Origin: a virus
Lineage: Duplodnaviria; Caudoviricetes
Reading direction: 5' to 3' (one strand)
IMG/VR virus record: IMGVR_UViG_3300042451_000960
DNA length: 64,000 nt
This document shows positions 45,445-55,002 of this stretch, piece after piece; position 1 is the stretch's first letter, and every line of letters starts with the position of its first letter. The notes under the pieces were generated by a model that was not told the DNA's origin, ran no database searches, and saw only the letters and a list, made by a program, of their open reading frames with translations. The translations under genes were made by a program, and so were the position numbers.

Positions 45445-46036
45445 TTATGTGAATGTTCTTAAAATTAGTTAGTATTCTTTTTTCAAACTCACCATCATGT
45501 TCAACAACATCAGTTCCCATAATTTTTTTCCAAAATTCTTCGTTTGTAAAATCTTTATCGTAGTAATGACCTGATTTTAAGAAAAAATTAAACCCAACTA
45601 AATGTACTTCTTTATTAAAGAACAAAGATAAATTTAATGCTAAAGTTCCTCCCGATGAAAGTCTAAATGTTGGGCTAATCATCAAAGGAAGTGATACATC
45701 CAATAGTTTAGTTCCAGATTGTATATGTATTATATCATCTTTGCTGTTTGGATACTTTGGTGATGTTGTAAATATAGGAACACTACCACTATACTTTATA
45801 TAATTTTTTTCTAAATACTTTGTATGTTTGTGAGAAAAGTCACTGCAATGCAAAGATAATGCAGATATTTTAGTACCTGCATTTTCTTCATGTCCATCCA
45901 ATTGGAAATCATTGAAACGAATTACATATTCATAACTATCTATTATACTTCCCATATTTTTAATATCACCGTTTCCAACAAGTAATACTTTTTGAGGAAT
46001 ACTAATAAATAAGTCTTGAACAGATGAGTAACTCAT
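45437..46036 (-). CDS. GT29 (sialyltransferase)-like glycosyltransferase
   Basis: Sialylmotif-L-like VLLVGNG...IDSY..VIRFN...GTK; SSGG..A; GF.F...HYY. Confidence 0.6.
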   Translation of the reverse strand: MSYSSVQDLFISIPQKVLLVGNGDIKNMGSIIDSYEYVIRFNDFQLDGHEENAGTKISALSLHCSDFSHKHTKYLEKNYIKYSGSVPIFTTSPKYPNSKDDIIHIQSGTKLLDVSLPLMISPTFRLSSGGTLALNLSLFFNKEVHLVGFNFFLKSGHYYDKDFTNEEFWKKIMGTDVVEHDGEFEKRILTNFKNIHIID

Positions 46037-46037
46037 A

Positions 46038-46493
46038 TTATATTTTTACTAAGTGGTCAGCTGCATAAGTTGCAATTGGACCTAATGTTTTATATCGTAC
46101 TTCATACCCCATACCTTCTACCATACCAACTGCTTGTCTGAACACTTCATTTGATTTAAAGCGTGGATCTGGATTCAAATCAATATCAATCCACTTTGGT
46201 TTTGGAATACCAGCTTCTCTTAAATATTCAGCTGCTTCAATTGCATACCAAACTTCGTTTAATAATCTTACTGAACGGGTTGGTTCTCTATCTGCTTTCC
46301 ATCTTCTATAAAGTACATGAGCTCCTTTTCCGTTATGGTACAAAGCCACAACAACGGCATATATTGTTTTATCGGCAAAGTTTTGCGAATCACATCCGAT
46401 AAGAAGTTCAATATTTTCATTGTTTTCAAAATAGTTTTTAACATAAGGGATAAGTTCAAATTCTTCTCTACCATAAAGCTTTTTGTACTTCAT
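46038..46493 (-). CDS. RNase H-like YkuK-family protein
   Basis: IGCDSQ, RL..EV..AI..A, IDLN, ADH. Confidence 0.75.
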   Translation of the reverse strand: MKYKKLYGREEFELIPYVKNYFENNENIELLIGCDSQNFADKTIYAVVVALYHNGKGAHVLYRRWKADREPTRSVRLLNEVWYAIEAAEYLREAGIPKPKWIDIDLNPDPRFKSNEVFRQAVGMVEGMGYEVRYKTLGPIATYAADHLVKI

Positions 46494-46509
46494 AAATTTT
46501 GTTTTTGAG

Positions 46510-46591
46510 TGCCCCATAAGAGACTCGAACTCTTATGCTTCTCAGCACCAGATCCTAAGTCTGGCATGTCTACCAATTCCATCAACGGGGC
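46510..46591 (-). tRNA. tRNA-Leu(TAG)
   Basis: Cloverleaf; anticodon arm ccaga-cttagga-tctgg. Confidence 0.9.
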
Positions 46592-46596
46592 CTTTG

Positions 46597-46743
46597 CTGT
46601 AAGAGATGGATTCGAACCACCATAGTGCGATTCAGTTAGTAACACATTCCTGCAGGATGGTGGTCTACCCCATATTACTAACCTATTTCGTGCTCACCAC
46701 CCCCGAGACAGGAGGGCTTGTCTGCCAATTCCAACACCTTACA
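46597..46743 (-). ncRNA. 147-nt tRNA-like RNA, GUC anticodon, ~75-nt variable arm
   Basis: Acceptor tgtaagg/tcttaca+G; class-II D-loop; ccctc-ctgtctc-ggggg; T-arm ggtgg-ttcgaat-ccatc. Confidence 0.7.
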
Positions 46744-46748
46744 ATGTG

Positions 46749-46833
46749 CAGAGAGTGAGGGATTCGAACCCCCGTTACCTTTCAGTAAAACAGTTTTCAA
46801 GACTGCCGCCATCAACCACTCGGCCAACTCTCT
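46749..46833 (-). tRNA. tRNA-Ser(TGA)
   Basis: gcagt-cttgaaa-actgt; long variable arm; G73. Confidence 0.9.
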
Positions 46834-46850
46834 GTTTAGTACTCTAATAA

Positions 46851-47114
46851 TTAGAATACTTTTTCATCTTTAAAGTCTTTAGTATCTAAAGTACTTTGAT
46901 TTCTTCTTGCTTCTTCTGCTTCTTTATATACCCTAACCCAAGTTAAGAATATATCTACTGGTGCTAATATCCAACACATAATCAATAGAGCCAAAGAATC
47001 TAAACCAGGTGATATACCTAAACCACCTGCTCTTACATCTCTATTCCATTTTCGTATTGACATTACAAGACAATAGATGAAACAAATTACATAATACGTC
47101 CAAAATAATCCCAT
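46851..47114 (-). CDS. Small membrane protein
   Basis: Two hydrophobic segments. Confidence 0.55.
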   Translation of the reverse strand: MGLFWTYYVICFIYCLVMSIRKWNRDVRAGGLGISPGLDSLALLIMCWILAPVDIFLTWVRVYKEAEEARRNQSTLDTKDFKDEKVF

Positions 47115-47141
47115 AACATTTGTTTTTAATTATTAAAATTT

Positions 47142-47603
47142 TTATTTATTTTTTAGAAAGACAACTAAAACCTCTCTATTTCCTTTTTTAATTGGTTTAA
47201 CTAAGTGTAGCTGATTTCCATTAAAAGCTATTATATCTCCTTTCACTAATGGAACATAATTTTTATCCAAATGAAATTCACCACCTTCAAATTCATCGTT
47301 TAGAATGAAAATAAAAGTTTTATTAGATGCACCAATATCACTATGTTCTTTTGCCCCTTCACCTTTTTTGTAATTTATATAATGAATTGATGTTATACAT
47401 TCATTAACATCATCTATTGGTATATTATTTTTTATAATATCTAGTAATTCATCATTTTTTAAATCACAAAAAAATCTTTCACTTTTTATGAAATATGGAC
47501 TATTTATATCATCTGAATTGCTAGGTACATATCTAGTATCATTACCATTTTTGTAAACCTCTTTTATTTTATTTATATCTTCAAATGAAATTTTATATTT
47601 CAT
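47142..47603 (-). CDS. 2OG-Fe(II) oxygenase (start reassigned to MKYKISF)
   Basis: EHSD (HxD), LNDEFEGGEF, H.V.PI.KGNR..LV. Confidence 0.8.
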   Translation of the reverse strand: MKYKISFEDINKIKEVYKNGNDTRYVPSNSDDINSPYFIKSERFFCDLKNDELLDIIKNNIPIDDVNECITSIHYINYKKGEGAKEHSDIGASNKTFIFILNDEFEGGEFHLDKNYVPLVKGDIIAFNGNQLHLVKPIKKGNREVLVVFLKNK

Positions 47604-47614
47604 AATATTTTTTG

Positions 47615-47686
47615 TTACCCGAACTGGACTCGAACCAATACGAACAGAATCAAAATCTGTGATGCTAACCATTACATCATCGGGCA
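47615..47686 (-). tRNA. tRNA-Gln(TTG)
   Basis: acaga-ttttgat-tctgt. Confidence 0.88.
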
Positions 47687-47773
47687 ATAAAACCCAAGCA
47701 AATTAATGCTTGAGTTTGTAGTAATTGAAAAACATCTATTCTTCTTGCGGCCTAATACTAACAGGCCCACTTG

Positions 47774-47846
47774 AGCGAGAGACCAGGCTCGAACTGGCCA
47801 CCTGAAGCTTGGAAGGCTACCGCTCTACCAAATGAGCTACTCTCGC
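47774..47846 (-). tRNA. tRNA-Gly(TCC)
   Basis: Loop cttccaa; U73. Confidence 0.9.
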
Positions 47847-47906
47847 TTTTGTGTAGGTGGGACTAACCTACTTCGGTTTTGTACTTCAACCATTAAAGTC
47901 CTTTTG

Positions 47907-47979
47907 AGCGGAAGACCAGGCTCGAACTGGCCACCCCAACCTTGGCAAGGTTGTGCTCTACCGAATGAGCTACTTCCGC
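47907..47979 (-). tRNA. tRNA-Gly(GCC)
   Basis: caacc-ttgccaa-ggttg; U73. Confidence 0.92.
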
Positions 47980-47987
47980 AATTTTTG

Positions 47988-48061
47988 TGGACCCACTTGG
48001 AATCGAACCAAGCACCTACTGATTATGAGTCAGTTGCTCTAACCGAATGAGCTATAGGTCC
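47988..48061 (-). tRNA. tRNA(CAT), Ile2-like (or elongator Met)
   Basis: actga-ctcataa-tcagt; GGACCT acceptor resembles Ile2. Confidence 0.85.
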
Positions 48062-48065
48062 GATG

Positions 48066-48139
48066 TGGAGAAGAAGGGAGTCGAACCCATGACCCTCTGC
48101 GTGCAAGGCAGATGCTCTAGCCAACTGAGCTACTTCCCC
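48066..48139 (-). tRNA. tRNA-Ala(TGC)
   Basis: tctgc-cttgcac-gcaga; G3:U70. Confidence 0.92.
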
Positions 48140-48149
48140 TAATTGAACG

Positions 48150-48235
48150 TACCGAGGATGGGAGTCGAACCCACACGAGCTATTTCTGCTCAAAAGATTT
48201 TAAGTCTTTCATGTCTACCATTCCATCACCTCGGC
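48150..48235 (-). tRNA. tRNA-Leu(TAA)
   Basis: aaaga-cttaaaa-tcttt; long variable arm. Confidence 0.9.
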
Positions 48236-48293
48236 GGCGATACTATTTCAAATAACTATACAAAGATACGAATAATATTTTAATTATCCTAAT

Positions 48294-48521
48294 TTAAAAT
48301 TTACCCCATTGAGATTTATTTCGGTTTCCTTCAGCTATCTTAAATCCTAGCCAAACCTCACCTAATAATCTTTTTATTTTTTTCAATAAGGTATTATCTT
48401 TTTTATAATTTTCAATAACTTCTTCTTGAATAAGTTCAATCGCTTTACCATATGAAATTTCTTCATTTTGCAATTTGATTTCTAAATCTCGTATGAATGC
48501 GGTTTTAATATACTTTGCCAT
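48294..48521 (-). CDS. Hypothetical protein
   Basis: ORF in tRNA array. Confidence 0.5.
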   Translation of the reverse strand: MAKYIKTAFIRDLEIKLQNEEISYGKAIELIQEEVIENYKKDNTLLKKIKRLLGEVWLGFKIAEGNRNKSQWGKF

Positions 48522-48554
48522 TTATTTTATATTTCACTTATCCAAATCTTTTCG

Positions 48555-48628
48555 TAGGGAATGCCAGATTCGAACTGACGACCTCTTGGTCCCAAACCAA
48601 GCGCGATACCGGGCTACGCTAATTCCCT
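48555..48628 (-). tRNA. tRNA-Pro(TGG)
   Basis: cttgg-tttggga-ccaag. Confidence 0.9.
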
Positions 48629-49065
48629 ATGTTTGCTACATTATATAACTTAACCTTTCTGATTTTTGTTCCTTTATCATCTGGGTTAATTAATATATCA
48701 ATCTTTTTTGTCCATCTCTTCGCCATTAAATCTCTGACGGTATATACACCATCTAATTTACCAGCACCCTTCACTCTTACTTTTTGTCCAAACTTATACT
48801 TTCGTTTCAGGTCTCTGCTTATTGCTATTACCTTTTGTTTCTTTGGATTAAGGCTATCCAATTTGTAACCACTTGCGGTAATTAATGGAGTTGAATCGGT
48901 TTCACCTTTAGATACAGTGTACGTTGTTACGGTCACTAAATCATAAGGTAACTTTTTCTTTTCTATTATTTCATCCACAACTTCTTCCTCACTCCTTTCA
49001 GAGTTATTTATATTATGCGGAATGAATAACAAAAAGAAGCATGTTACTAAAGTTACATTTTTCAT
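48619..49065 (-). CDS. 3D-domain (MltA-like) cell-wall protein with signal peptide
   Basis: TDSTP.ITASG, IAISRDL, V.DLM..RW...IDIL. Confidence 0.75.
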   Translation of the reverse strand: MKNVTLVTCFFLLFIPHNINNSERSEEEVVDEIIEKKKLPYDLVTVTTYTVSKGETDSTPLITASGYKLDSLNPKKQKVIAISRDLKRKYKFGQKVRVKGAGKLDGVYTVRDLMAKRWTKKIDILINPDDKGTKIRKVKLYNVANIGN

Positions 49066-49080
49066 GTCTTACTTTTTATT

Positions 49081-49157
49081 TGGTGATTCGGAAAGGATTC
49101 GAACCTTTGACCCACAGCTTAGAAGGCTGTTGCTCTATCCAACTGAGCTACCGAACC
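49081..49157 (-). tRNA. tRNA-Arg(TCT), CCA encoded
   Basis: acagc-cttctaa-gctgt. Confidence 0.92.
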
Positions 49158-49161
49158 AAAC

Positions 49162-49326
49162 AGTTGTTTCAACTTGCAAGTTTACTCTTAACATCTCTTT
49201 CTCTACAACGTCTGAACCTAATCTACATTTGTAGTCCGAATGTGGCGTTGGGTAATTACTCCATGCCTCTATGTAACTCTATGTGCCTTACCTTGTTACT
49301 AGGTGTGTTAAGTGTATGAAACAACT
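49162..49326 (-). ncRNA. Putative structured spacer RNA (~165 nt)
   Basis: Closing stems agttgtttca/tgaaacaact and cttaaca/tgttaag. Confidence 0.4.
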
Positions 49327-49327
49327 T

Positions 49328-49404
49328 AAAAGTATAATCACCTCACATCTGCAGGTGTTAAAGATTGCCGAGCTAATTGCATATACAATCTAATTATACC
49401 TTTT
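49328..49404 (-). ncRNA. Putative three-way-junction spacer RNA
   Basis: aaaagtataat/attatacctttt enclosing cacct/aggtg and agattg/caatct. Confidence 0.35.
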
Positions 49405-49405
49405 G

Positions 49406-49479
49406 CGGATTGTACGGGACTCGAACCCGTGAACTCCACCGTGACAGGGTGGCATGATAACCAACTTCACCAACAATCC
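49406..49479 (-). tRNA. tRNA-Asp(GTC)
   Basis: ccacc-ctgtcac-ggtgg; G73. Confidence 0.92.
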
Positions 49480-49554
49480 TTAATCACTAATTCACCTTTA
49501 TCCGCACCATCCATGTCATGCACTGGTTGACAAACACCTCAATGAATTAGTTTG

Positions 49555-49626
49555 AGCTTCCATCCGGAATCGAACCGAATTATCTTGATTACAAGTCAAG
49601 CGCATCGCCTGCAATGCTTTGGAAGC
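49555..49626 (-). tRNA. tRNA-Thr(TGT)
   Basis: cttga-cttgtaa-tcaag. Confidence 0.85.
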
Positions 49627-49631
49627 GTTTT

Positions 49632-49716
49632 GATAAGAGAATGTCCCAGCCGTTTCTTTCTCTTATCTAACATACACTAACAGCTAAATACGGCTTGACT
49701 GATTGTGATGTATGCT
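49632..49716 (-). ncRNA. Putative kissing-loop spacer RNA
   Basis: Two hairpins with complementary loops agccgt/acggct. Confidence 0.4.
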
Positions 49717-49720
49717 ATTG

Positions 49721-49792
49721 TACTCGGTACGGGAATCGAACCCGTATCACCACCGTGAAAGGGTGGTGTCCTAACCGTTAGACGAACCGAGC
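49721..49792 (-). tRNA. tRNA-Glu(TTC)
   Basis: ccacc-ctttcac-ggtgg. Confidence 0.92.
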
Positions 49793-49798
49793 ATAGAT

Positions 49799-49995
49799 GG
49801 GTTGATGTGGTGAATCAATAAGTTAATATGATTACCAATTAATAAGAGTTTTGAGTGTGTTGACATTGCGCGAATGTTGACTCTATCAAGATTTGAGAGT
49901 TGAAATTATTTAATCATCATCGTTTAATACTGATTGGCAATGCGTCAGATTTGCAAGATAATAATAAAAACAAATTTCATCACTCACATCTTCCC
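49799..49995 (-). ncRNA. Putative structured RNA (~197 nt) downstream of 50005-50433
   Basis: Ends pair: gggttgatgtggtga with tcactcacatcttccc. Confidence 0.35.
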
Positions 49996-50004
49996 AATTT
50001 TTTA

Positions 50005-50433
50005 TTAGATGGTTGTAGTTGCGTTATACACATCCAACTCATCCTGCAATCCCTCAATTTGATTTTCCAAATCTTTTATCATTTGGTCTTTTTGAGCGAT
50101 ATTAATTTCTACTTCTTTCACCGATTGGATTGAACCAAATCTTTCGGTTACTTTACCTTCTTCACAACTCATTCCTTTAAGTTGCTTTACCTTTCCTTTT
50201 AGCTCTGCCATTAGGAAAATCTTACCATATACAGGTTGGTTAGCCTGATGGATTTTAGTTTTTAAATCAACCAACTCTTTGGTCAATTCTTCTGCTTCAT
50301 TCAATACTCCATTTACGGAATATCTACGCAGGTTACCTTCCTCAATTGAGTTATGATTCTTAGCGATTTCATATAACGCTTTGATTTGAGTGGTAAGTTT
50401 GTTCTTTGCTTTTAAAGCCTGTTTTACGTTCAT
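50005..50433 (-). CDS. Coiled-coil protein, DIP1984-like
   Basis: M.VKQALK.K..L...LK.KI..AN...LQ..LD..NA.T. Confidence 0.55.
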   Translation of the reverse strand: MNVKQALKAKNKLTTQIKALYEIAKNHNSIEEGNLRRYSVNGVLNEAEELTKELVDLKTKIHQANQPVYGKIFLMAELKGKVKQLKGMSCEEGKVTERFGSIQSVKEVEINIAQKDQMIKDLENQIEGLQDELDVYNATTTI

Positions 50434-50496
50434 CTCTTTTATGTTTTAAGTTATACAAATATACGAATAATTTTTCAATTATCCAAATTATTTATG

Positions 50497-50586
50497 CGGA
50501 GAGTGAGAGATTCGAACTCTCGGTACAGATTAACTCCGTACAACGGTTTAGCAAACCGGCCCTTTCGGCCACTCAGGCAACTCTCC
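50497..50586 (-). tRNA. tRNA-Ser(GCT)
   Basis: Loop ttgctaa; long variable arm; G73. Confidence 0.9.
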
Positions 50587-50588
50587 GT

Positions 50589-50663
50589 TGGGGTGTAAGG
50601 ACGGTATCGAACCGTCTTATCTAGCTCCACAAACTAGCGCATCACCTTAATGCTTCAAACACC
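50589..50663 (-). tRNA. tRNA-His(GTG), G-1:C73, CCA encoded
   Basis: ctagt-ttgtgga-gctag; two U-U mismatches in acceptor. Confidence 0.8.
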
Positions 50664-50666
50664 ATT

Positions 50667-50738
50667 TGGTTGCGGGGCCAGGAATTGAACCTGAATATCT
50701 GGCTTATGAGACCAAACGGATTACCTAATCTCCCCACA
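50667..50738 (-). tRNA. Atypical tRNA(CAT) with truncated D-arm, CCA encoded
   Basis: tgtgggg/ccccgca acceptor; gatt-aggt-aatc D-arm; ctcataa loop. Confidence 0.65.
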
Positions 50739-50746
50739 ATATCAAG

Positions 50747-50817
50747 AGGCGAGTACAGGATTCGAACCTGTGTAAAAGTTTTTGCAGAACTTCATATCAC
50801 CACTCTAACAACTCGCC
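50747..50817 (-). tRNA. tRNA-Cys(GCA)
   Basis: aagtt-ctgcaaa-aactt; U73. Confidence 0.88.
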
Positions 50818-50825
50818 TTATTATG

Positions 50826-50898
50826 TAGCCCCTAAAGGATTCGAACCTTTAACCCAACGTCCGTAGCGTTGTGTGATAATCCATTTCACTAAAGAGCC
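50826..50898 (-). tRNA. tRNA-Arg(ACG)
   Basis: caacg-ctacgga-cgttg. Confidence 0.9.
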
Positions 50899-50903
50899 AA
50901 TTG

Positions 50904-50974
50904 CACGGGTAGTAGGATTCGAACCCACAACAACGGTTTTGGAGACCGGCATGATACCATTTCACTATACCCAT
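50904..50974 (-). tRNA. tRNA-Trp(CCA)
   Basis: Loop ctccaaa; G73. Confidence 0.88.
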
Positions 50975-50979
50975 GTGTG

Positions 50980-51053
50980 TTGGAGTAGCGGGATTCGAAC
51001 CTGCGGCATCTAACGTATCAGATTAGCGCTCTAACCAACTGAGCTATACTCCA
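50980..51053 (-). tRNA. tRNA-Ile(GAT)
   Basis: ctaat-ctgatac-gttag. Confidence 0.88.
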
Positions 51054-51128
51054 ATGTGATAGGTTTCCATCCTATCGTATAATGTGTACATCATTATTTT
51101 AACTCAATATTAAGTTCGGAACTTTTTG

Positions 51129-51202
51129 TGACCCCTAATGGATTCGAACCATTGACTCCTATATTAAAAGTATAGTGCTCTAACCAACTGAGCTAAGAGG
51201 TC
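51129..51202 (-). tRNA. tRNA-Lys(TTT)
   Basis: ctata-cttttaa-tatag. Confidence 0.9.
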
Positions 51203-51242
51203 TGACTTTTGTCATACTTGTCACTTTCCATAGTATTTGTTT

Positions 51243-51452
51243 TTAATTGTTATCTTCTAATTCTATTTTACAATATTCGTCCAATGATATTTTATCAAAT
51301 GTTATCCATTGTCCATTTCCAAAATCTACTGCGAACTTACCATCTTCTGGTAGATACGCAGTTACTATTCCTTTACTACCCATTTCAATTTTTCCTTTTG
51401 GTGTCACCAACTCTTTTATTAATGTACCAACTCCATGATTAAAATCTGCCAT
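51243..51452 (-). CDS. Small SH3-like hypothetical protein
   Basis: KG..G.V......KFAVDFG. Confidence 0.5.
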   Translation of the reverse strand: MADFNHGVGTLIKELVTPKGKIEMGSKGIVTAYLPEDGKFAVDFGNGQWITFDKISLDEYCKIELEDNN

Positions 51453-51474
51453 AATTGTTTTTTTAATTGTTAAG

Positions 51475-51547
51475 TGGTAATGAGTGGTATCGAACCACTT
51501 CCTAAAGATTTTCAGTCTTTCGCTTCTACCTAGTTAGCTTCATCACC
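51475..51547 (-). tRNA. tRNA-Phe(GAA)
   Basis: aaaga-ctgaaaa-tcttt. Confidence 0.9.
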
Positions 51548-51551
51548 GGTG

Positions 51552-51633
51552 TTGGGGTAGACGGACTCGAACCGCCGAACTCAAATGAGAGCTGATTTAC
51601 AGTCAGCCGCAATTGCCACTATGCGATACCCCA
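51552..51633 (-). tRNA. tRNA-Tyr(GTA)
   Basis: gctga-ctgtaaa-tcagc; long variable arm. Confidence 0.92.
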
Positions 51634-51638
51634 ATGGC

Positions 51639-51732
51639 GTTCCATATAACTCACATTTGATAGCCCTATCGTGCTACTCACTCAATCCTACAACAGCTTT
51701 CAACTGAGAGATTGTAGGAATGTGTATGGAAC
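51639..51732 (-). ncRNA. Putative 94-nt multibranch spacer RNA
   Basis: gttccata/tatggaac, cacat/atgtg, tcctacaa/ttgtagga stems. Confidence 0.45.
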
Positions 51733-51738
51733 ATGTTG

Positions 51739-51813
51739 TGGAAGTTACAGGATTCGAACCTATGACCCTCACGGTGTAAACGTGATGCTCTAAACCAGCT
51801 GAGCTAAACTTCC
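51739..51813 (-). tRNA. tRNA-Val(TAC)
   Basis: tcacg-tttacac-cgtga. Confidence 0.9.
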
Positions 51814-51822
51814 AACTTATCC

Positions 51823-51838
51823 CAATATGTCAAAGAAC
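51823..51838 (-). promoter_or_regulatory. boxA-like antitermination element
   Basis: Minus GTTCTTTGACATATTG; compare boxA GCTCTTTAACA. Confidence 0.6.
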
Positions 51839-51846
51839 ATATACTG

Positions 51847-51918
51847 CGCTCCCTCTTGGATTCGAACCAAGGACCAACAGATTAACAGTCTGCTGCGCTA
51901 CCGCTGCGCCAAAGGAGC
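51847..51918 (-). tRNA. tRNA-Asn(GTT)
   Basis: gcaga-ctgttaa-tctgt; G73. Confidence 0.92.
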
Positions 51919-51920
51919 TT

Positions 51921-51962
51921 AAAACGAAAAAACCTCTAACCGATTTGATTCAGTTAGAGGTC
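51921..51962 (-). terminator. Intrinsic terminator (attenuator) upstream of tRNA-Asn
   Basis: gacctctaactg-aatcaaat-cggttagaggtt plus ttttcgtttt. Confidence 0.8.
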
Positions 51963-51989
51963 TTTCTATGTTGTTTTAAGTATAATCTA

Positions 51990-52142
51990 TTACCAACCTG
52001 ATGCTTCCTCTAACTGTGTACAAATATAATCCACCTTGCCTAAGTTTGCCGGATTACTAATCGTACTAAACATACGAATGCCTGCCCACTCATTTCTCAA
52101 TGTAGGTTGCGAACAATTTGTATGTAGTGTTAAAGTTTTCAT
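51990..52142 (-). CDS. 50-aa putative leader peptide carrying an antiterminator
   Basis: MKTLTLHTNCSQPTLRNEWAGIRMFSTISNPANLGKVDYICTQLEEASGW; nt 52007-52016 complementary to terminator 5' arm. Confidence 0.7.
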   Translation of the reverse strand: MKTLTLHTNCSQPTLRNEWAGIRMFSTISNPANLGKVDYICTQLEEASGW

Positions 52143-52209
52143 CACTTTGTTATATTAATAAGTATATATAAATAATTTTTTCCGAATTGTTGTTAGTTTC
52201 ATCAGGCTT

Positions 52210-52237
52210 AAATAGGGGATGCCGAAGCACCCCCATC
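52210..52237 (-). terminator. UUCG-tetraloop hairpin, probable terminator
   Basis: ggggtgc-ttcg-gcatcccc-tattt on minus. Confidence 0.6.
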
Positions 52238-52291
52238 TAAGTTGTAATAAAAATTAAGATATGAAACGAACAACTTTTCAGTTGTTAGTAG

Positions 52292-52361
52292 AGCGGTGAA
52301 AGGAATTGAACCTCTCCTTTTCACTGGAATGTGAAATGTGCTACCGTAACACTTACACCGC
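52292..52361 (-). tRNA. Atypical Gly(TCC)-like tRNA with non-7-nt anticodon loop
   Basis: gcggtg/caccgc+U; tttcac-attcca-gtgaaa; T-loop ttcaatt. Confidence 0.55.
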
Positions 52362-52603
52362 ATAAATGGAAAGTTTTTTTGTAAGGTGGGAACTTTCCGA
52401 GCGCTTGCCTAACCACAGGTATCTATCGTGTCAACCATTTTCGTTTAGCCCTATTTGATAAGGGATTAACAGTCAAACTTACAAAAACCAGCCTATACTG
52501 TCTACATTAGTTTTGTTCTTTTAGGTCTACATAACTCTTTATTCTCAATAGGTGAACATTATGTAAAAGAAAGACCACGATAATTCATCTTACAGGATGA
52601 ATT

Positions 52604-53530
52604 TGCTCTCTCTATTGGAATCGAACCAATATACAACCATTGAGAAAGTAAAAACGTTGAGAATACACGTTGGGATAACTAGCTTTAGAAAGATTATTTT
52701 GATTCCTTTCGTTTCCACACCCTTTTGAGATGTACCAGTCAATGCAGGTTAGTAAAGTATAACCACTCTTAAAGTTGTAACTTACTCTCTTACTACTCCC
52801 CTTATTCAATCCTGCCGAACTGATTCAACCTTGCGGGTCTATAAGCTTTTCGTAAAAATCATAACCACCTTGCGGGCGTTTATGGCTGGGAACAACTCCC
52901 AACTATGTATGCACCTTTCGGTCACAACTGATGGACACTTATGCTTTATGTTTAATTATAGTTTTTCAAACCTAAATTGAAAATATAAAGTTTTGGTTTG
53001 TAGATTGATTCAGGTAGCGGTCCATCACCAGCTCCCCCATCTTTTGAACGAGAGAATACTAAACTACCCAATGCGTTATCTCAACGCCATACTTCAAGTC
53101 ATCTTCATTAATAGGGATTGGTGTCCCACATTAAAGGATAGTAACGCCACCACGCGTACACAGTCTTATCTTACGTCCTTTCGGATAGCTTGATTATCAA
53201 GACCACTTTGGTATTGAATCACGCAATAGTAAAAAGGGATTAGCTTTCTATGTCTTACAATAATTCTATGAGTTATTCTTATTGTTCTTCCGAACTCAAC
53301 CGAAGGTTCTACATACCCCCAGTTACCCAAACTCTTCTGCTACAGTGTTACCCTCACATACAAAGCCCAAGTAATATCTCACTTGCCTACTCAAGCTCAT
53401 AACCCTAAACGGATTACAAACCGCAAATCATTTAACCAAATGATTCACTTTATCCTACTTTCGTAGTTTATTTAATGACCATAGGCGGCCATCGTACACT
53501 ATGTAACACAAGGTTACTATGTGTAGTATC
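52604..53530 (-). ncRNA. Large (~0.9 kb) structured ncRNA, GOLLD-like
   Basis: No credible ORF; many GNRA hairpins; within tRNA array; follows promoter and boxA; 3' end is a T-arm/acceptor minihelix. Family identity from recalled resemblance only. Confidence 0.6.
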
Positions 53531-53532
53531 TT

Positions 53533-53548
53533 CAATATGTTAAAGAAC
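53533..53548 (-). promoter_or_regulatory. boxA-like antitermination element
   Basis: Minus GTTCTTTAACATATTG. Confidence 0.65.
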
Positions 53549-53566
53549 TTTTGTTTTAAGAACAGA

Positions 53567-54000
53567 GTAAAGATACGAAATCTTTTTCAATTTTCCAAAA
53601 CTTTTTTTAAAGATTCTCAATTTTGTTTTCTGGCGAACCAATCAACTACTTTATTTTTGAATCTTAGTAAAGATACGATAATTTTTTCAAACTACCAAAT
53701 CTTTTTTTAATTAGTTAGTTAAAGTATCCGGCTTTGTAGTTTCTTTTCACTCTAACGAAACTAATGTTTAACGAGTCACTCAATCGGTTTTATTAGTTGA
53801 TGGCTTCAACCTTAACTTTGTAAAGATACGATAATTTTTTCAAACTACCAAATCTTTTTTGTTGCGGGGGAAGGATTCGAACCAACGGCCTCAAGGTTAT
53901 GAGCCTTGCGAGCTACCTCTGCTCTACCCCACAATATTATATTATTTAAAAGAACTTTGTAAAGATACAAATAATTTTTCAAACTACCAAATCTTTTTTT
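53567..54000 (-). repeat. Four tandem ~41-bp repeats, each a Bacteroidota promoter
   Basis: gtaaagatacgataattttttcaaactaccaaatctttttt-like units at 53567, 53667, 53820, 53959. Confidence 0.75.
53862..53933 (-). tRNA. tRNA-Met(CAT), initiator-like
   Basis: tgtggggtagagcag...caagg-ctcataa-ccttg. Confidence 0.85.
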
Positions 54001-54103
54001 CTAAATGTGGATAACTTTCATAAATGCCTCAGAATCAATGAGTTATACACATAGAATTAATAAGTATATACAAATATACTAAAAAGATACGAATCCGCCA
54101 AAT

Positions 54104-54790
54104 TTATTTTTTAGATTGTGCAACAAATGTTTGAGCTGCCTTAAATACAGGGTGTTTCTCATCGTATGCTAAAGCTGATTTAACTTTAATCATATTTCCT
54201 GTTGCTGGATTTTTAATAGTTTTGTCTAAAATATCTTTTGGTAATAAATGCATTAACTTTGTTTCATCATCAGAAACTTTAGGTTCTTCTGGCTTAAATA
54301 CAAAAGTTTTTCCGCCTTTTAGTTTTGAATAAGCTTGTTGTATTTTATCAGGAGAAAACTTACCAATATTTTCTACCTTACCATCTTTGAATATAAGAGT
54401 TGCGTTTCCTTTAGTTTGTTCACCACCAAAGATAACCGCATCCTGTCCGTATTTTTTACCTAAGTTGTGAATATCTTTTGCTGAAATATTTGGAACGAAA
54501 AGTGATTCTTCGATAGCATCTTTTAGTAAGTTCTTCGGACAATCTTCGTATGATAGGTTACCATCCTGGCACTCAACCCAATGACCTTCTACTTTAAAGA
54601 ATCCATGCCCCATCTGCCTTAATTCAGCTTCTAATTCTTTATTAAGTTTTTTATTTTGGTTTGGAGTATTAGAATATCTATATGCGGTAAGCATACCCCA
54701 ATTTTTCACACTCTTTTTGCCCTGAATGTGTTGGAGAACTCTACCTAAAGAAGCTTCATCCAAACGTACTACTTTACATCCTTTTTCCAT
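54104..54790 (-). CDS. Hypothetical protein, DUF3293-like
   Basis: WG.LTAYR...N..L...L...G.W.E...EES.FV...YGQDA. Confidence 0.5.
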   Translation of the reverse strand: MEKGCKVVRLDEASLGRVLQHIQGKKSVKNWGMLTAYRYSNTPNQNKKLNKELEAELRQMGHGFFKVEGHWVECQDGNLSYEDCPKNLLKDAIEESLFVPNISAKDIHNLGKKYGQDAVIFGGEQTKGNATLIFKDGKVENIGKFSPDKIQQAYSKLKGGKTFVFKPEEPKVSDDETKLMHLLPKDILDKTIKNPATGNMIKVKSALAYDEKHPVFKAAQTFVAQSKK

Positions 54791-55002
54791 TCATTGTATA
54801 TTTCATTAGATAAATATATAGAATCGTGAAAATGGATTTTTTCTTGCACCTTCTTTAGTCTTTCCGAAATACGGTCAATTTTAGTTTGACGAGCCCATTT
54901 ACCCATATTATTTACAGGTATGTGAGCTTCAGCACTTGCTAATTCTTCCTTTAATTCGGATTCTTTAAGTTTAAGTTTTAATATGTTTTCGTTGATTTCC
55001 AT
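54769..55002 (-). CDS. Coiled-coil hypothetical protein
   Basis: ORF track. Confidence 0.5.
   Translation of the reverse strand: MEINENILKLKLKESELKEELASAEAHIPVNNMGKWARQTKIDRISERLKKVQEKIHFHDSIYLSNEIYNEWKKDVK

Follow-up and report, generated by a model that had tools for sequence, protein, structure and literature searches.

The stretch of viral DNA analyzed here (IMG/VR record IMGVR_UViG_3300042451_000960; Duplodnaviria, Caudoviricetes), called the window below and 64,000 nt in full length, comes from a large lake-water phage and carries an array of tRNA genes. Directly ahead of the array lie a 50-codon open reading frame (ORF) and an intrinsic terminator, which together make up a candidate transcription attenuator. 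The leader ORF, the antiterminator segment within it, the terminator, the tRNA array and the GOLLD RNA that precedes them are all encoded on the minus strand. Downstream of GOLLD the order is a tRNA-like gene, a hairpin with a UUCG loop, an AT-rich stretch, the ORF, a spacer, the terminator, tRNA-Asn and 24 more tRNA genes. The features of the leader and the array are as follows, in the direction of transcription.

52142–51990, minus strand: leader ORF (ATG at 52142, TAA at 51992–51990; 50 codons plus stop)
52135–52129, minus strand: segment 1, CUUUAAC, codons 3–5; anti-antiterminator partner of segment 2, closing the leader fold (P1)
52125–52120, minus strand: 5′ strand of P2, ACAUAC, codons 6–8 (RNAalifold consensus helix)
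52075–52070, minus strand: 3′ strand of P2, GUAUGU, codons 23–25 (RNAalifold consensus helix)
52066–52063, minus strand: 5′ strand of P3, GUAC, codons 26–27; covariation with 52021–52018
52021–52018, minus strand: 3′ strand of P3, GUAC, codons 41–42 in the window (staged folding and covariation)
52016–52007, minus strand: segment 2, CAGUUAGAGG, codons 43–46; partner of segment 1, or of segment 3 as antiterminator
51966–51921, minus strand: intrinsic terminator (A-tract, segment 3, loop, segment 4, U-tract)
51960–51950, minus strand: segment 3, CCUCUAACUGA, the 5′ arm of the terminator
51949–51944, minus strand: loop of the terminator
51943–51933, minus strand: segment 4, UCGGUUAGAGG, the 3′ arm of the terminator
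51932–51921, minus strand: U-tract of the terminator
51918–51846, minus strand: tRNA-Asn (GUU), the first gene past the terminator (ARAGORN)
51918–46509, minus strand: tRNA array of 25 genes for all 20 amino acids (ARAGORN)

The ORF and a strong terminator directly upstream of tRNA-Asn had been proposed in an earlier reading of the window by a model given the letters and a list of ORFs (the original prediction), and both are real; the U-tract ends 2 nt before the start of tRNA-Asn at 51918. The gap of 28 nt that it gave between the stop codon and the terminator holds as to the order of the two, and the spacer measures 27–29 nt, according to the base chosen as the start of the stem. The array is likewise real, but 24 tRNA genes rather than 23 follow tRNA-Asn: ARAGORN finds 27 tRNA genes within 53933–46509, and 25 of them lie downstream of the terminator.

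The element belongs to a family that was found at ∼110 loci in uncultured freshwater phages. Searches with the back-translated peptide recovered 15 loci in IMG/VR, and an alignment-based search of JGI and ENA metagenomes yielded 101 candidates, of which 80 loci were kept, together with 16 viral loci. The resulting set comprises 72 distinct 260-nt regions, with 69 distinct complete ORFs and 66 distinct complete sequences. The surroundings of the leader are conserved. In all 13 viral loci checked, the ORF has GOLLD (260–307 bits), ending 190–600 nt away, on its upstream side and a tRNA array on its downstream side, and a single copy of the leader is present in each of ten related phage records (45–289 kb). 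Of 65 loci, 64 have tRNA-Asn(GUU) as the first tRNA gene past the terminator, and across relatives this gene mostly starts 10–16 nt past the start of the U-tract, so near that no room is left for a separate promoter. The arrays behind the leader hold 22–25 tRNAs with a near-identical anticodon set, and they cover all 20 amino acids wherever the fetched contig was long enough.

When one genome per bacterial or archaeal species was scanned (185,579 species), a single 1.6-kb contig was recovered, in a metagenome-assembled genome (MAG) of Cyanobium. This contig is probably phage-derived, and the element appears to be limited to phages. We considered the Cyanobium MAG as a pointer to the host and rejected it as giving none. 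The same scan does not bear out the likeness, mentioned in the original prediction, to short ORFs upstream of RNA-repair genes of Bacteroidota.

Coding signature and amino acid content of the leader

The ATG start codon is kept in all 69 distinct complete ORFs. Their 3454 codons contain no in-frame stop, compared with 369 and 337 stops in the other two frames, with at least one per sequence. The ratio of nonsynonymous to synonymous polymorphism (pN/pS) is 0.46 in frame, and 0.91 and 1.05 in the shifted frames, and a third-position bias is present in the leader frame. Insertions and deletions within the ORF are all multiples of 3, those in the spacer past the stop codon being of 1, 2, 4 and 5 nt. 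In a sublineage whose peptide begins MKNFNL, an insertion of one nucleotide and a deletion of one nucleotide occur within 9 nt of each other, and both segment 1 and the downstream frame are kept. At segment 2 the encoded residues vary freely (Glu, Arg, Gly), as RNA pairing demands. A Shine-Dalgarno sequence precedes only 2 of 54 genes of the window phage; the A-rich start context of the leader is therefore typical of its genome. Taken together, these comparisons show that the leader frame bears the evolutionary signature of a translated ORF, in line with the translated leader that had been predicted.

AlphaFold2, run on an alignment of 13 sequences, returned a predicted local distance difference test (pLDDT) score of 48.8, with no secondary structure and no fold, and the leader peptide has no match in PHROG. 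A sensor peptide fits these two results better than a structural protein does.

All 20 amino acids are present in 58 of 59 distinct peptides, that is, in 48 of 48 long forms (50–53 residues) and in 10 of 11 short forms (38–44 residues). The C-terminal halves of the short forms are unrelated to that of the long form and partly unrelated to each other. At the amino acid frequencies of the phage a complete set would arise by chance in 3.4% of peptides of 50 residues and in 0.6% of those of 40; among 731 stretches of 50 residues from the phage's own proteins, 19 hold all 20. When residues were shuffled within the columns of the alignment, 74% of the peptides were complete, and none of 2000 shuffles attained the observed 100%. 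The invariant residues (His7, Trp19, Phe25, Tyr, one Val and one Asp) are mostly single copies, and Cys, which occupies column 10, 17, 20 or 46 according to the lineage, is never lost.

In an attenuator the regulatory codons are placed so that a stall would free segment 2; in this leader there are no tandem runs, and instead all 20 amino acids are encoded, upstream of segment 2 in the long form. Each of 47 long peptides has a full set 4–7 codons before segment 2, a lead that is about the reach of the leading edge of a ribosome, and the variable tail past segment 2 contributes no new amino acid. The codons of the long leaders represent 23–25 of the 25 classes that the array decodes (null probability of ∼0.1% for 25 and of ∼1% for at least 24). 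With a complete set upstream of the antiterminator segment in nearly every member, the sequences support the general translation sensor that had been suggested.

Narrower specificities were considered and rejected. A sensor of Asn alone is not indicated by ∼4 Asn codons at a genome frequency of 6.8%, which is no enrichment, and a sensor of rare codons is not indicated either, such codons being present at about the expected number. A strict match of the leader to individual tRNA species was also discarded: every array checked has tRNA-Arg(ACG), and the arrays hardly vary. None of the other small ORFs in the array region has both 20 distinct residues and a U-tract after it. A 69-residue ORF between tRNA-Phe and tRNA-Lys (51452–51243, minus strand) has no Pfam match and no U-tract after it, and is for the latter reason unlike a second attenuator.

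Four co-varying segments form mutually exclusive folds

Over 10 nt, segment 2 is perfectly complementary to the 5′ arm of the terminator, exactly as claimed in the original prediction for codons 43–46. When the 200 nt upstream were shuffled 20000 times, a complement of this length turned up in 8 cases. The duplex of segments 2 and 3 has an energy of −16.6 kcal/mol, and the core hairpin of the terminator, with an 11-bp stem, −15.1 kcal/mol, or −22.5 kcal/mol with its flanking A/U extension. A simple terminator scan missed this terminator, likely because the U-tract can pair with the upstream A-tract too.

A fourth segment, absent from the earlier description, lies at codons 3–5 (segment 1). Segment 4 has a direct repeat in segment 2, and segments 1 and 3 are alike; the layout is the classical one of alternative 1:2, 2:3 and 3:4 pairings. 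The stop codon is located 14 nt past segment 2 in most members (range 11–23).

The terminator was found in all 66 complete relatives. Scored over 7-nt cores, the 2:3 pairing is full in 66 of 66 distinct complete sequences, with changes on both sides, and the 3:4 pairing is full in 65 of 66. The 1:2 pairing has 7 of 7 pairs in 60 sequences, 6 of 7 in five and 5 of 7 in one. Segment 2 occurs, among other forms, as GUUAGAG, GUUAAGG, GUUAGGG and GUCAGGG, each with matching partners. The types of segments 2 and 3 found together are GUUAGAGG with CCUCUAAC, GUUAAGGG with CCCUUAAC, GUUAGGG with CCCUAAC, and GUCAGGG with CCCUGAC. Segments 1 and 2 co-vary over five sequence types, the variants of segment 1 (CUCUUAAC, CUCUAAC, C[CU]UUGAC and CCUUAAC) each fitting their own form of segment 2. 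The antiterminator proposed from the window is borne out by its relatives, in all 66 of which the 2:3 pairing co-varies with the terminator.

Folding was then staged as in transcription for 17 diverse members of the family. Before segment 3 is transcribed, the 1:2 pairing has a probability of 0.47–1.0. Once segment 3 is out and segment 4 is not yet made, the 2:3 pairing reaches 0.75–1.0, mostly near 1, and when segment 1 is masked, as it would be by a ribosome on codons 1–9, it is 0.92–1.0. For the full-length transcript the ground state combines the 1:2 and 3:4 pairings, whose joint probability is ∼0.7–1.0 in 14 of these 17 members.

Inside the ORF lies a three-way fold that is closed by the 1:2 helix. 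Its P2 helix (ACAUAC/GUAUGU) is invariant save for two G-U changes, and hence shows no covariation in RNAalifold. In P3, position 1 of codon 27 co-varies with position 3 of alignment codon 46 (A/U in 44 sequences, G/C in 11 and a mismatch in 1). RNAalifold detected no conserved helices beyond these. The folding z-score of positions 51915–52260 is −6.15, and a search of Rfam over the element at E up to 1 gave as its best match a chance hit to NsiR1 (E 0.75). These data show that the family has four co-varying segments that form mutually exclusive folds.

Proposed attenuation and its alternatives

In our best reading of these findings, attenuation of the classical kind acts here on tRNA genes, and its leader encodes all 20 amino acids. 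We propose, with a probability of roughly 0.7, that the element is a trp-type ribosome-mediated attenuator that heads the phage tRNA operon and senses the supply of any charged tRNA. The position of the ribosome would select the fold, and tRNA supply would be the signal. The transcription start would probably lie close ahead of the ORF, so that the 5′ untranslated region (UTR) would be short; as usual in the window phage, it would have no Shine-Dalgarno sequence. On a transcript without a ribosome, the 1:2 pairing would close the three-way fold of the ORF, the 3:4 terminator would form and the polymerase would stop 2 nt before tRNA-Asn. A ribosome moving at normal speed would cover segment 2 and then wait at the stop codon, 14 nt further on, while the polymerase makes segments 3 and 4, and transcription would again terminate. 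A stall within about the first 40 codons, caused by scarcity of any charged tRNA, would leave the leader fold open and segment 2 free. Free segment 2 would capture segment 3 as it emerges, the terminator would be blocked and the polymerase would enter the 25 tRNA genes. The array would in this way be expressed on demand and switched off again when decoding is fast; because the products are themselves tRNAs, the circuit would be self-limiting.

Possible triggers are a codon mismatch between the phage (33% G+C) and its host, host shut-off and tRNA-cleaving defences. We give even odds to a stronger form of the proposal, in which the leader is a deliberate 'pangram' that monitors the whole charged-tRNA pool of the host with one ribosome, so that the complete tRNA set would be released when any one tRNA is depleted (e.g., by host anticodon nucleases or by a codon-usage mismatch) and shut off on recovery. 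Under this pangram version, tRNA genes would be under attenuation and the product would feed back on its own sensor.

The element shares with the trpL, hisL, pheL, thrL and ilvGMEDA leaders a short ORF, the 1:2, 2:3 and 3:4 segments, a terminator before the regulated genes and, presumably, the ribosome position as selector; with the multivalent ilv and thr leaders it shares the readout of more than one amino acid. It differs from the leaders of amino acid operons in that (i) tRNAs rather than biosynthetic enzymes would be regulated, and in a phage; (ii) runs of regulatory codons are absent, all 20 amino acids being present mostly 1–3 times; and (iii) the whole ORF lies inside the 1:2 domain, with segment 2 upstream of the stop codon and not downstream. 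T-box riboswitches, too, respond to the condition of the tRNA pool with a choice of terminator or antiterminator, but they bind one specific uncharged tRNA directly, are untranslated and control synthetase or amino acid genes; no T-box match was found within 45500–55000 (Rfam, E up to 1). Full-text literature searches, on the attenuation of phage tRNA genes by leader peptides and on the context of GOLLD, returned no description of the element. To our knowledge, phage tRNA arrays are usually regarded as constitutively expressed cargo.

Several observations weigh against attenuation as proposed here, or limit what the counts can say in its favour. The sequences of the family are related, so that counts over them are not independent trials. 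The 2:3 pairing is thermodynamically favoured after segment 3 emerges even when no ribosome is present; termination on a ribosome-free transcript would therefore rest on kinetics. We infer the translation of the ORF, its coupling to the polymerase and the physiological trigger, and the coupling would depend on the host. The leader has none of the codon runs of the trp, his and phe leaders, and since most amino acids occur only 1–3 times, its sensitivity, as to mild starvation, may be low unless depletion is severe. Leaders without CGN codons still precede arrays with tRNA-Arg(ACG). Contigs of four lake metatranscriptomes over 51400–54000 leave the ORF, the terminator and the tRNAs uncovered, which counts neither way; assembled contigs are unable to show the absence of a transcript. 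Finally, in an 18-nt block, GGCAAGGUGGAUUAUAUU (52027–52044, encoding GKVDYI), the four codons GGC, GUG, GAU and UAU are free of synonymous change in 56 long-form ORFs, and GGC and GUG are rare codons in the window phage. This invariance points to an additional constraint at the RNA level that attenuation leaves unexplained. A consistent complement of GGCAAGGUGGAUUAUAUU was sought in the leader, the spacer and tRNA-Asn, and none was found; a local AAUCC/GGAUU hairpin at the block is broken in three lineages, and the block is still kept. It may be a pause site or a binding site.

Two other explanations also take the ORF to be translated, and we consider both unlikely. The conserved N-terminal half of the peptide (MKTLTLHT...W.GI.MF) could act within the ribosomal tunnel, in the manner of TnaC, SecM and the Erm leaders, so that a small molecule or factor would make the ribosome stall and the antiterminator would be freed. 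Residues such as Gly21 and Pro31 are indeed kept despite synonymous codon variation, and the conserved part common to long and short forms ends about where the stall must fall in the short form. Conservation of single-copy residues is accounted for, however, by the all-20 property and the relocation of Cys, without any interaction with the tunnel; Arg23 is replaced by Ser or Gly, the residues beside the expected stall site differ between long and short forms, and the peptide contains no known arrest motif. Equally improbable in our view is a micro-protein gene with its own terminator, in which the pairings would serve mRNA stability or the gene's own translation and the tRNAs would be made by constant leak-through. 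Such a protein could be a partner of GOLLD or of the array, to which the ORF is constantly linked, and the ORF is under purifying selection. The peptide has no predicted fold and no family match, though, exchange of its C-terminal tail is free, and half of the protein is missing from the short form; of a micro-protein one would expect neither a full set of 20 amino acids in 58 of 59 variants nor a coding segment that co-varies with a terminator arm.

Explanations that dispense with the peptide appear less probable still. The three-way fold closed by the 1:2 helix might bind a ligand, a protein or an RNA, with the ORF incidental, and for such a riboswitch-like or factor-binding leader speak the resemblance to a P1 helix with an expression platform, the covariation of P1 and P3, the nucleotide-invariant 18-nt block and the folding z-score of −6.15. 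We think this improbable, because the frame is open in 69 of 69 distinct sequences and bears in-frame indels, third-position bias and a compensated frameshift, and because an all-20 composition is meaningless for a non-coding RNA; beyond the co-varying P1 and P3, RNAalifold gives no further conserved helices, and no Rfam family matches at E below 0.7. The least probable of the alternatives is a constitutive terminator that separates the GOLLD unit from the tRNA array, with the upstream complement as the relic of a duplication. A duplication would yield just such a repeat of segment 4 as segment 2 and such a likeness of segment 1 to segment 3. A relic should decay, yet all four segments change together in several lineages, and tRNA-Asn has no room for a promoter of its own. 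The tunnel-arrest, micro-protein and riboswitch-like readings each account for part of the data, and none of them for the open frame together with the four co-varying segments and an all-20 set ahead of segment 2.

If the proposed attenuation is correct, it would represent a new use of a classical mechanism, with tRNAs as the regulated products, a general rather than a single-amino-acid sensor and a self-correcting loop. It would also provide a concrete link between phage tRNAs and the depletion of host tRNAs by codon mismatch, host shut-off or tRNA-cleaving defences. In practice, such a leader could act as a compact reporter of overall decoding capacity.

GOLLD and other elements around the leader

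The element defines a conserved neighbour of the GOLLD RNA. The features upstream of the leader are listed below, again in the direction of transcription.

53071–52654, minus strand: conserved 3′ domain of GOLLD RNA (Rfam RF02032, 295.9 bits, E 1.9e-84)
52362–52291, minus strand: unassignable tRNA-like gene, between GOLLD and the leader
52237–52210, minus strand: UUCG-loop hairpin, upstream of the leader
52171–52156, minus strand: candidate promoter element, an AT-rich 16-mer, 14 nt upstream of the ATG

By the limits of the Rfam match to GOLLD, the leader is not within the conserved 3′ domain of this RNA: the match to RF02032 ends at 52654 and the leader begins at 52142, a distance of ∼510 nt from the GOLLD core, and the two are likewise separated in the relatives. 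GOLLD adjoins phage tRNA islands, downstream of tRNA-Met, according to a cryo-electron microscopy study that makes no mention of a downstream ORF or attenuator (bioRxiv 10.1101/2024.12.08.627333). The same order of tRNA-Met and GOLLD is found here, and the attenuator is a separate element further downstream. The link between GOLLD and the leader is not general, as in LR756502, a distant huge phage, neither a leader of this kind nor a tRNA array lies within 2.5 kb of its GOLLD-like region.

GOLLD (about 52650–53500) is present at very high depth in contigs of four independent lake metatranscriptomes. Cover falls ∼100-fold past its conserved 3′ domain, and a low tail ends at ∼52404–52436.

The 16-mer UU[G/A]UAUAUACUUAUUA at 52171–52156 recurs with one base changed at 54073–54058, upstream of the tRNA-Met/GOLLD unit. 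Its core, TATA[CT]TTAT, lies 14–24 nt before the ATG in 7 of 16 loci checked, and in relatives it occurs almost only on the transcribed strand. On this distribution the 16-mer is a candidate promoter element, which would mean a short 5′ UTR.

The UUCG-loop hairpin had been described as a separate terminator that insulates the unit. The hairpin itself is supported, with compensatory changes in its stem that keep the pairing in close relatives; its U-tract is weak, with nothing more than UAUUUAAG behind the stem, so that its strength as a terminator is low at best and the proposed insulation is supported in part only. The hairpin may mark where the preceding RNA unit ends. In a number of relatives (L004, L006–L010, L012, L014 and others) a conserved element of ∼75 nt, 60–130 nt upstream of the leader ATG, replaces the UUCG hairpin of window-type loci. 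Its core reads GAGGCUAGUAUUAACC...GCAUGAC...GGCGUAUUUUGAA; it is located inside a long-range stem with a U-run after it, and no Rfam family was found for it among the matches listed.

For the tRNA-like gene at 52362–52291 ARAGORN gives a 2-nt 'anticodon', and its score against the Rfam tRNA family is 34 bits. A similar unassignable tRNA lies just past the GOLLD-like region of LR756502. A transfer-messenger RNA (tmRNA) gene is found further upstream of the tRNA-Met/GOLLD/leader/tRNA block in 6 of 13 related loci (L004, L007, L011, L013 and L014 among them), 800–2900 nt upstream of the leader, so that several translation-related RNAs are clustered there.

A boxA-like motif, UGUUCUUUGACA, is present directly past tRNA-Asn (51839–51828, minus strand), and could render polymerases that have passed the attenuator processive. 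In the relative L002 this same motif directly follows the terminator, ahead of the first tRNA.

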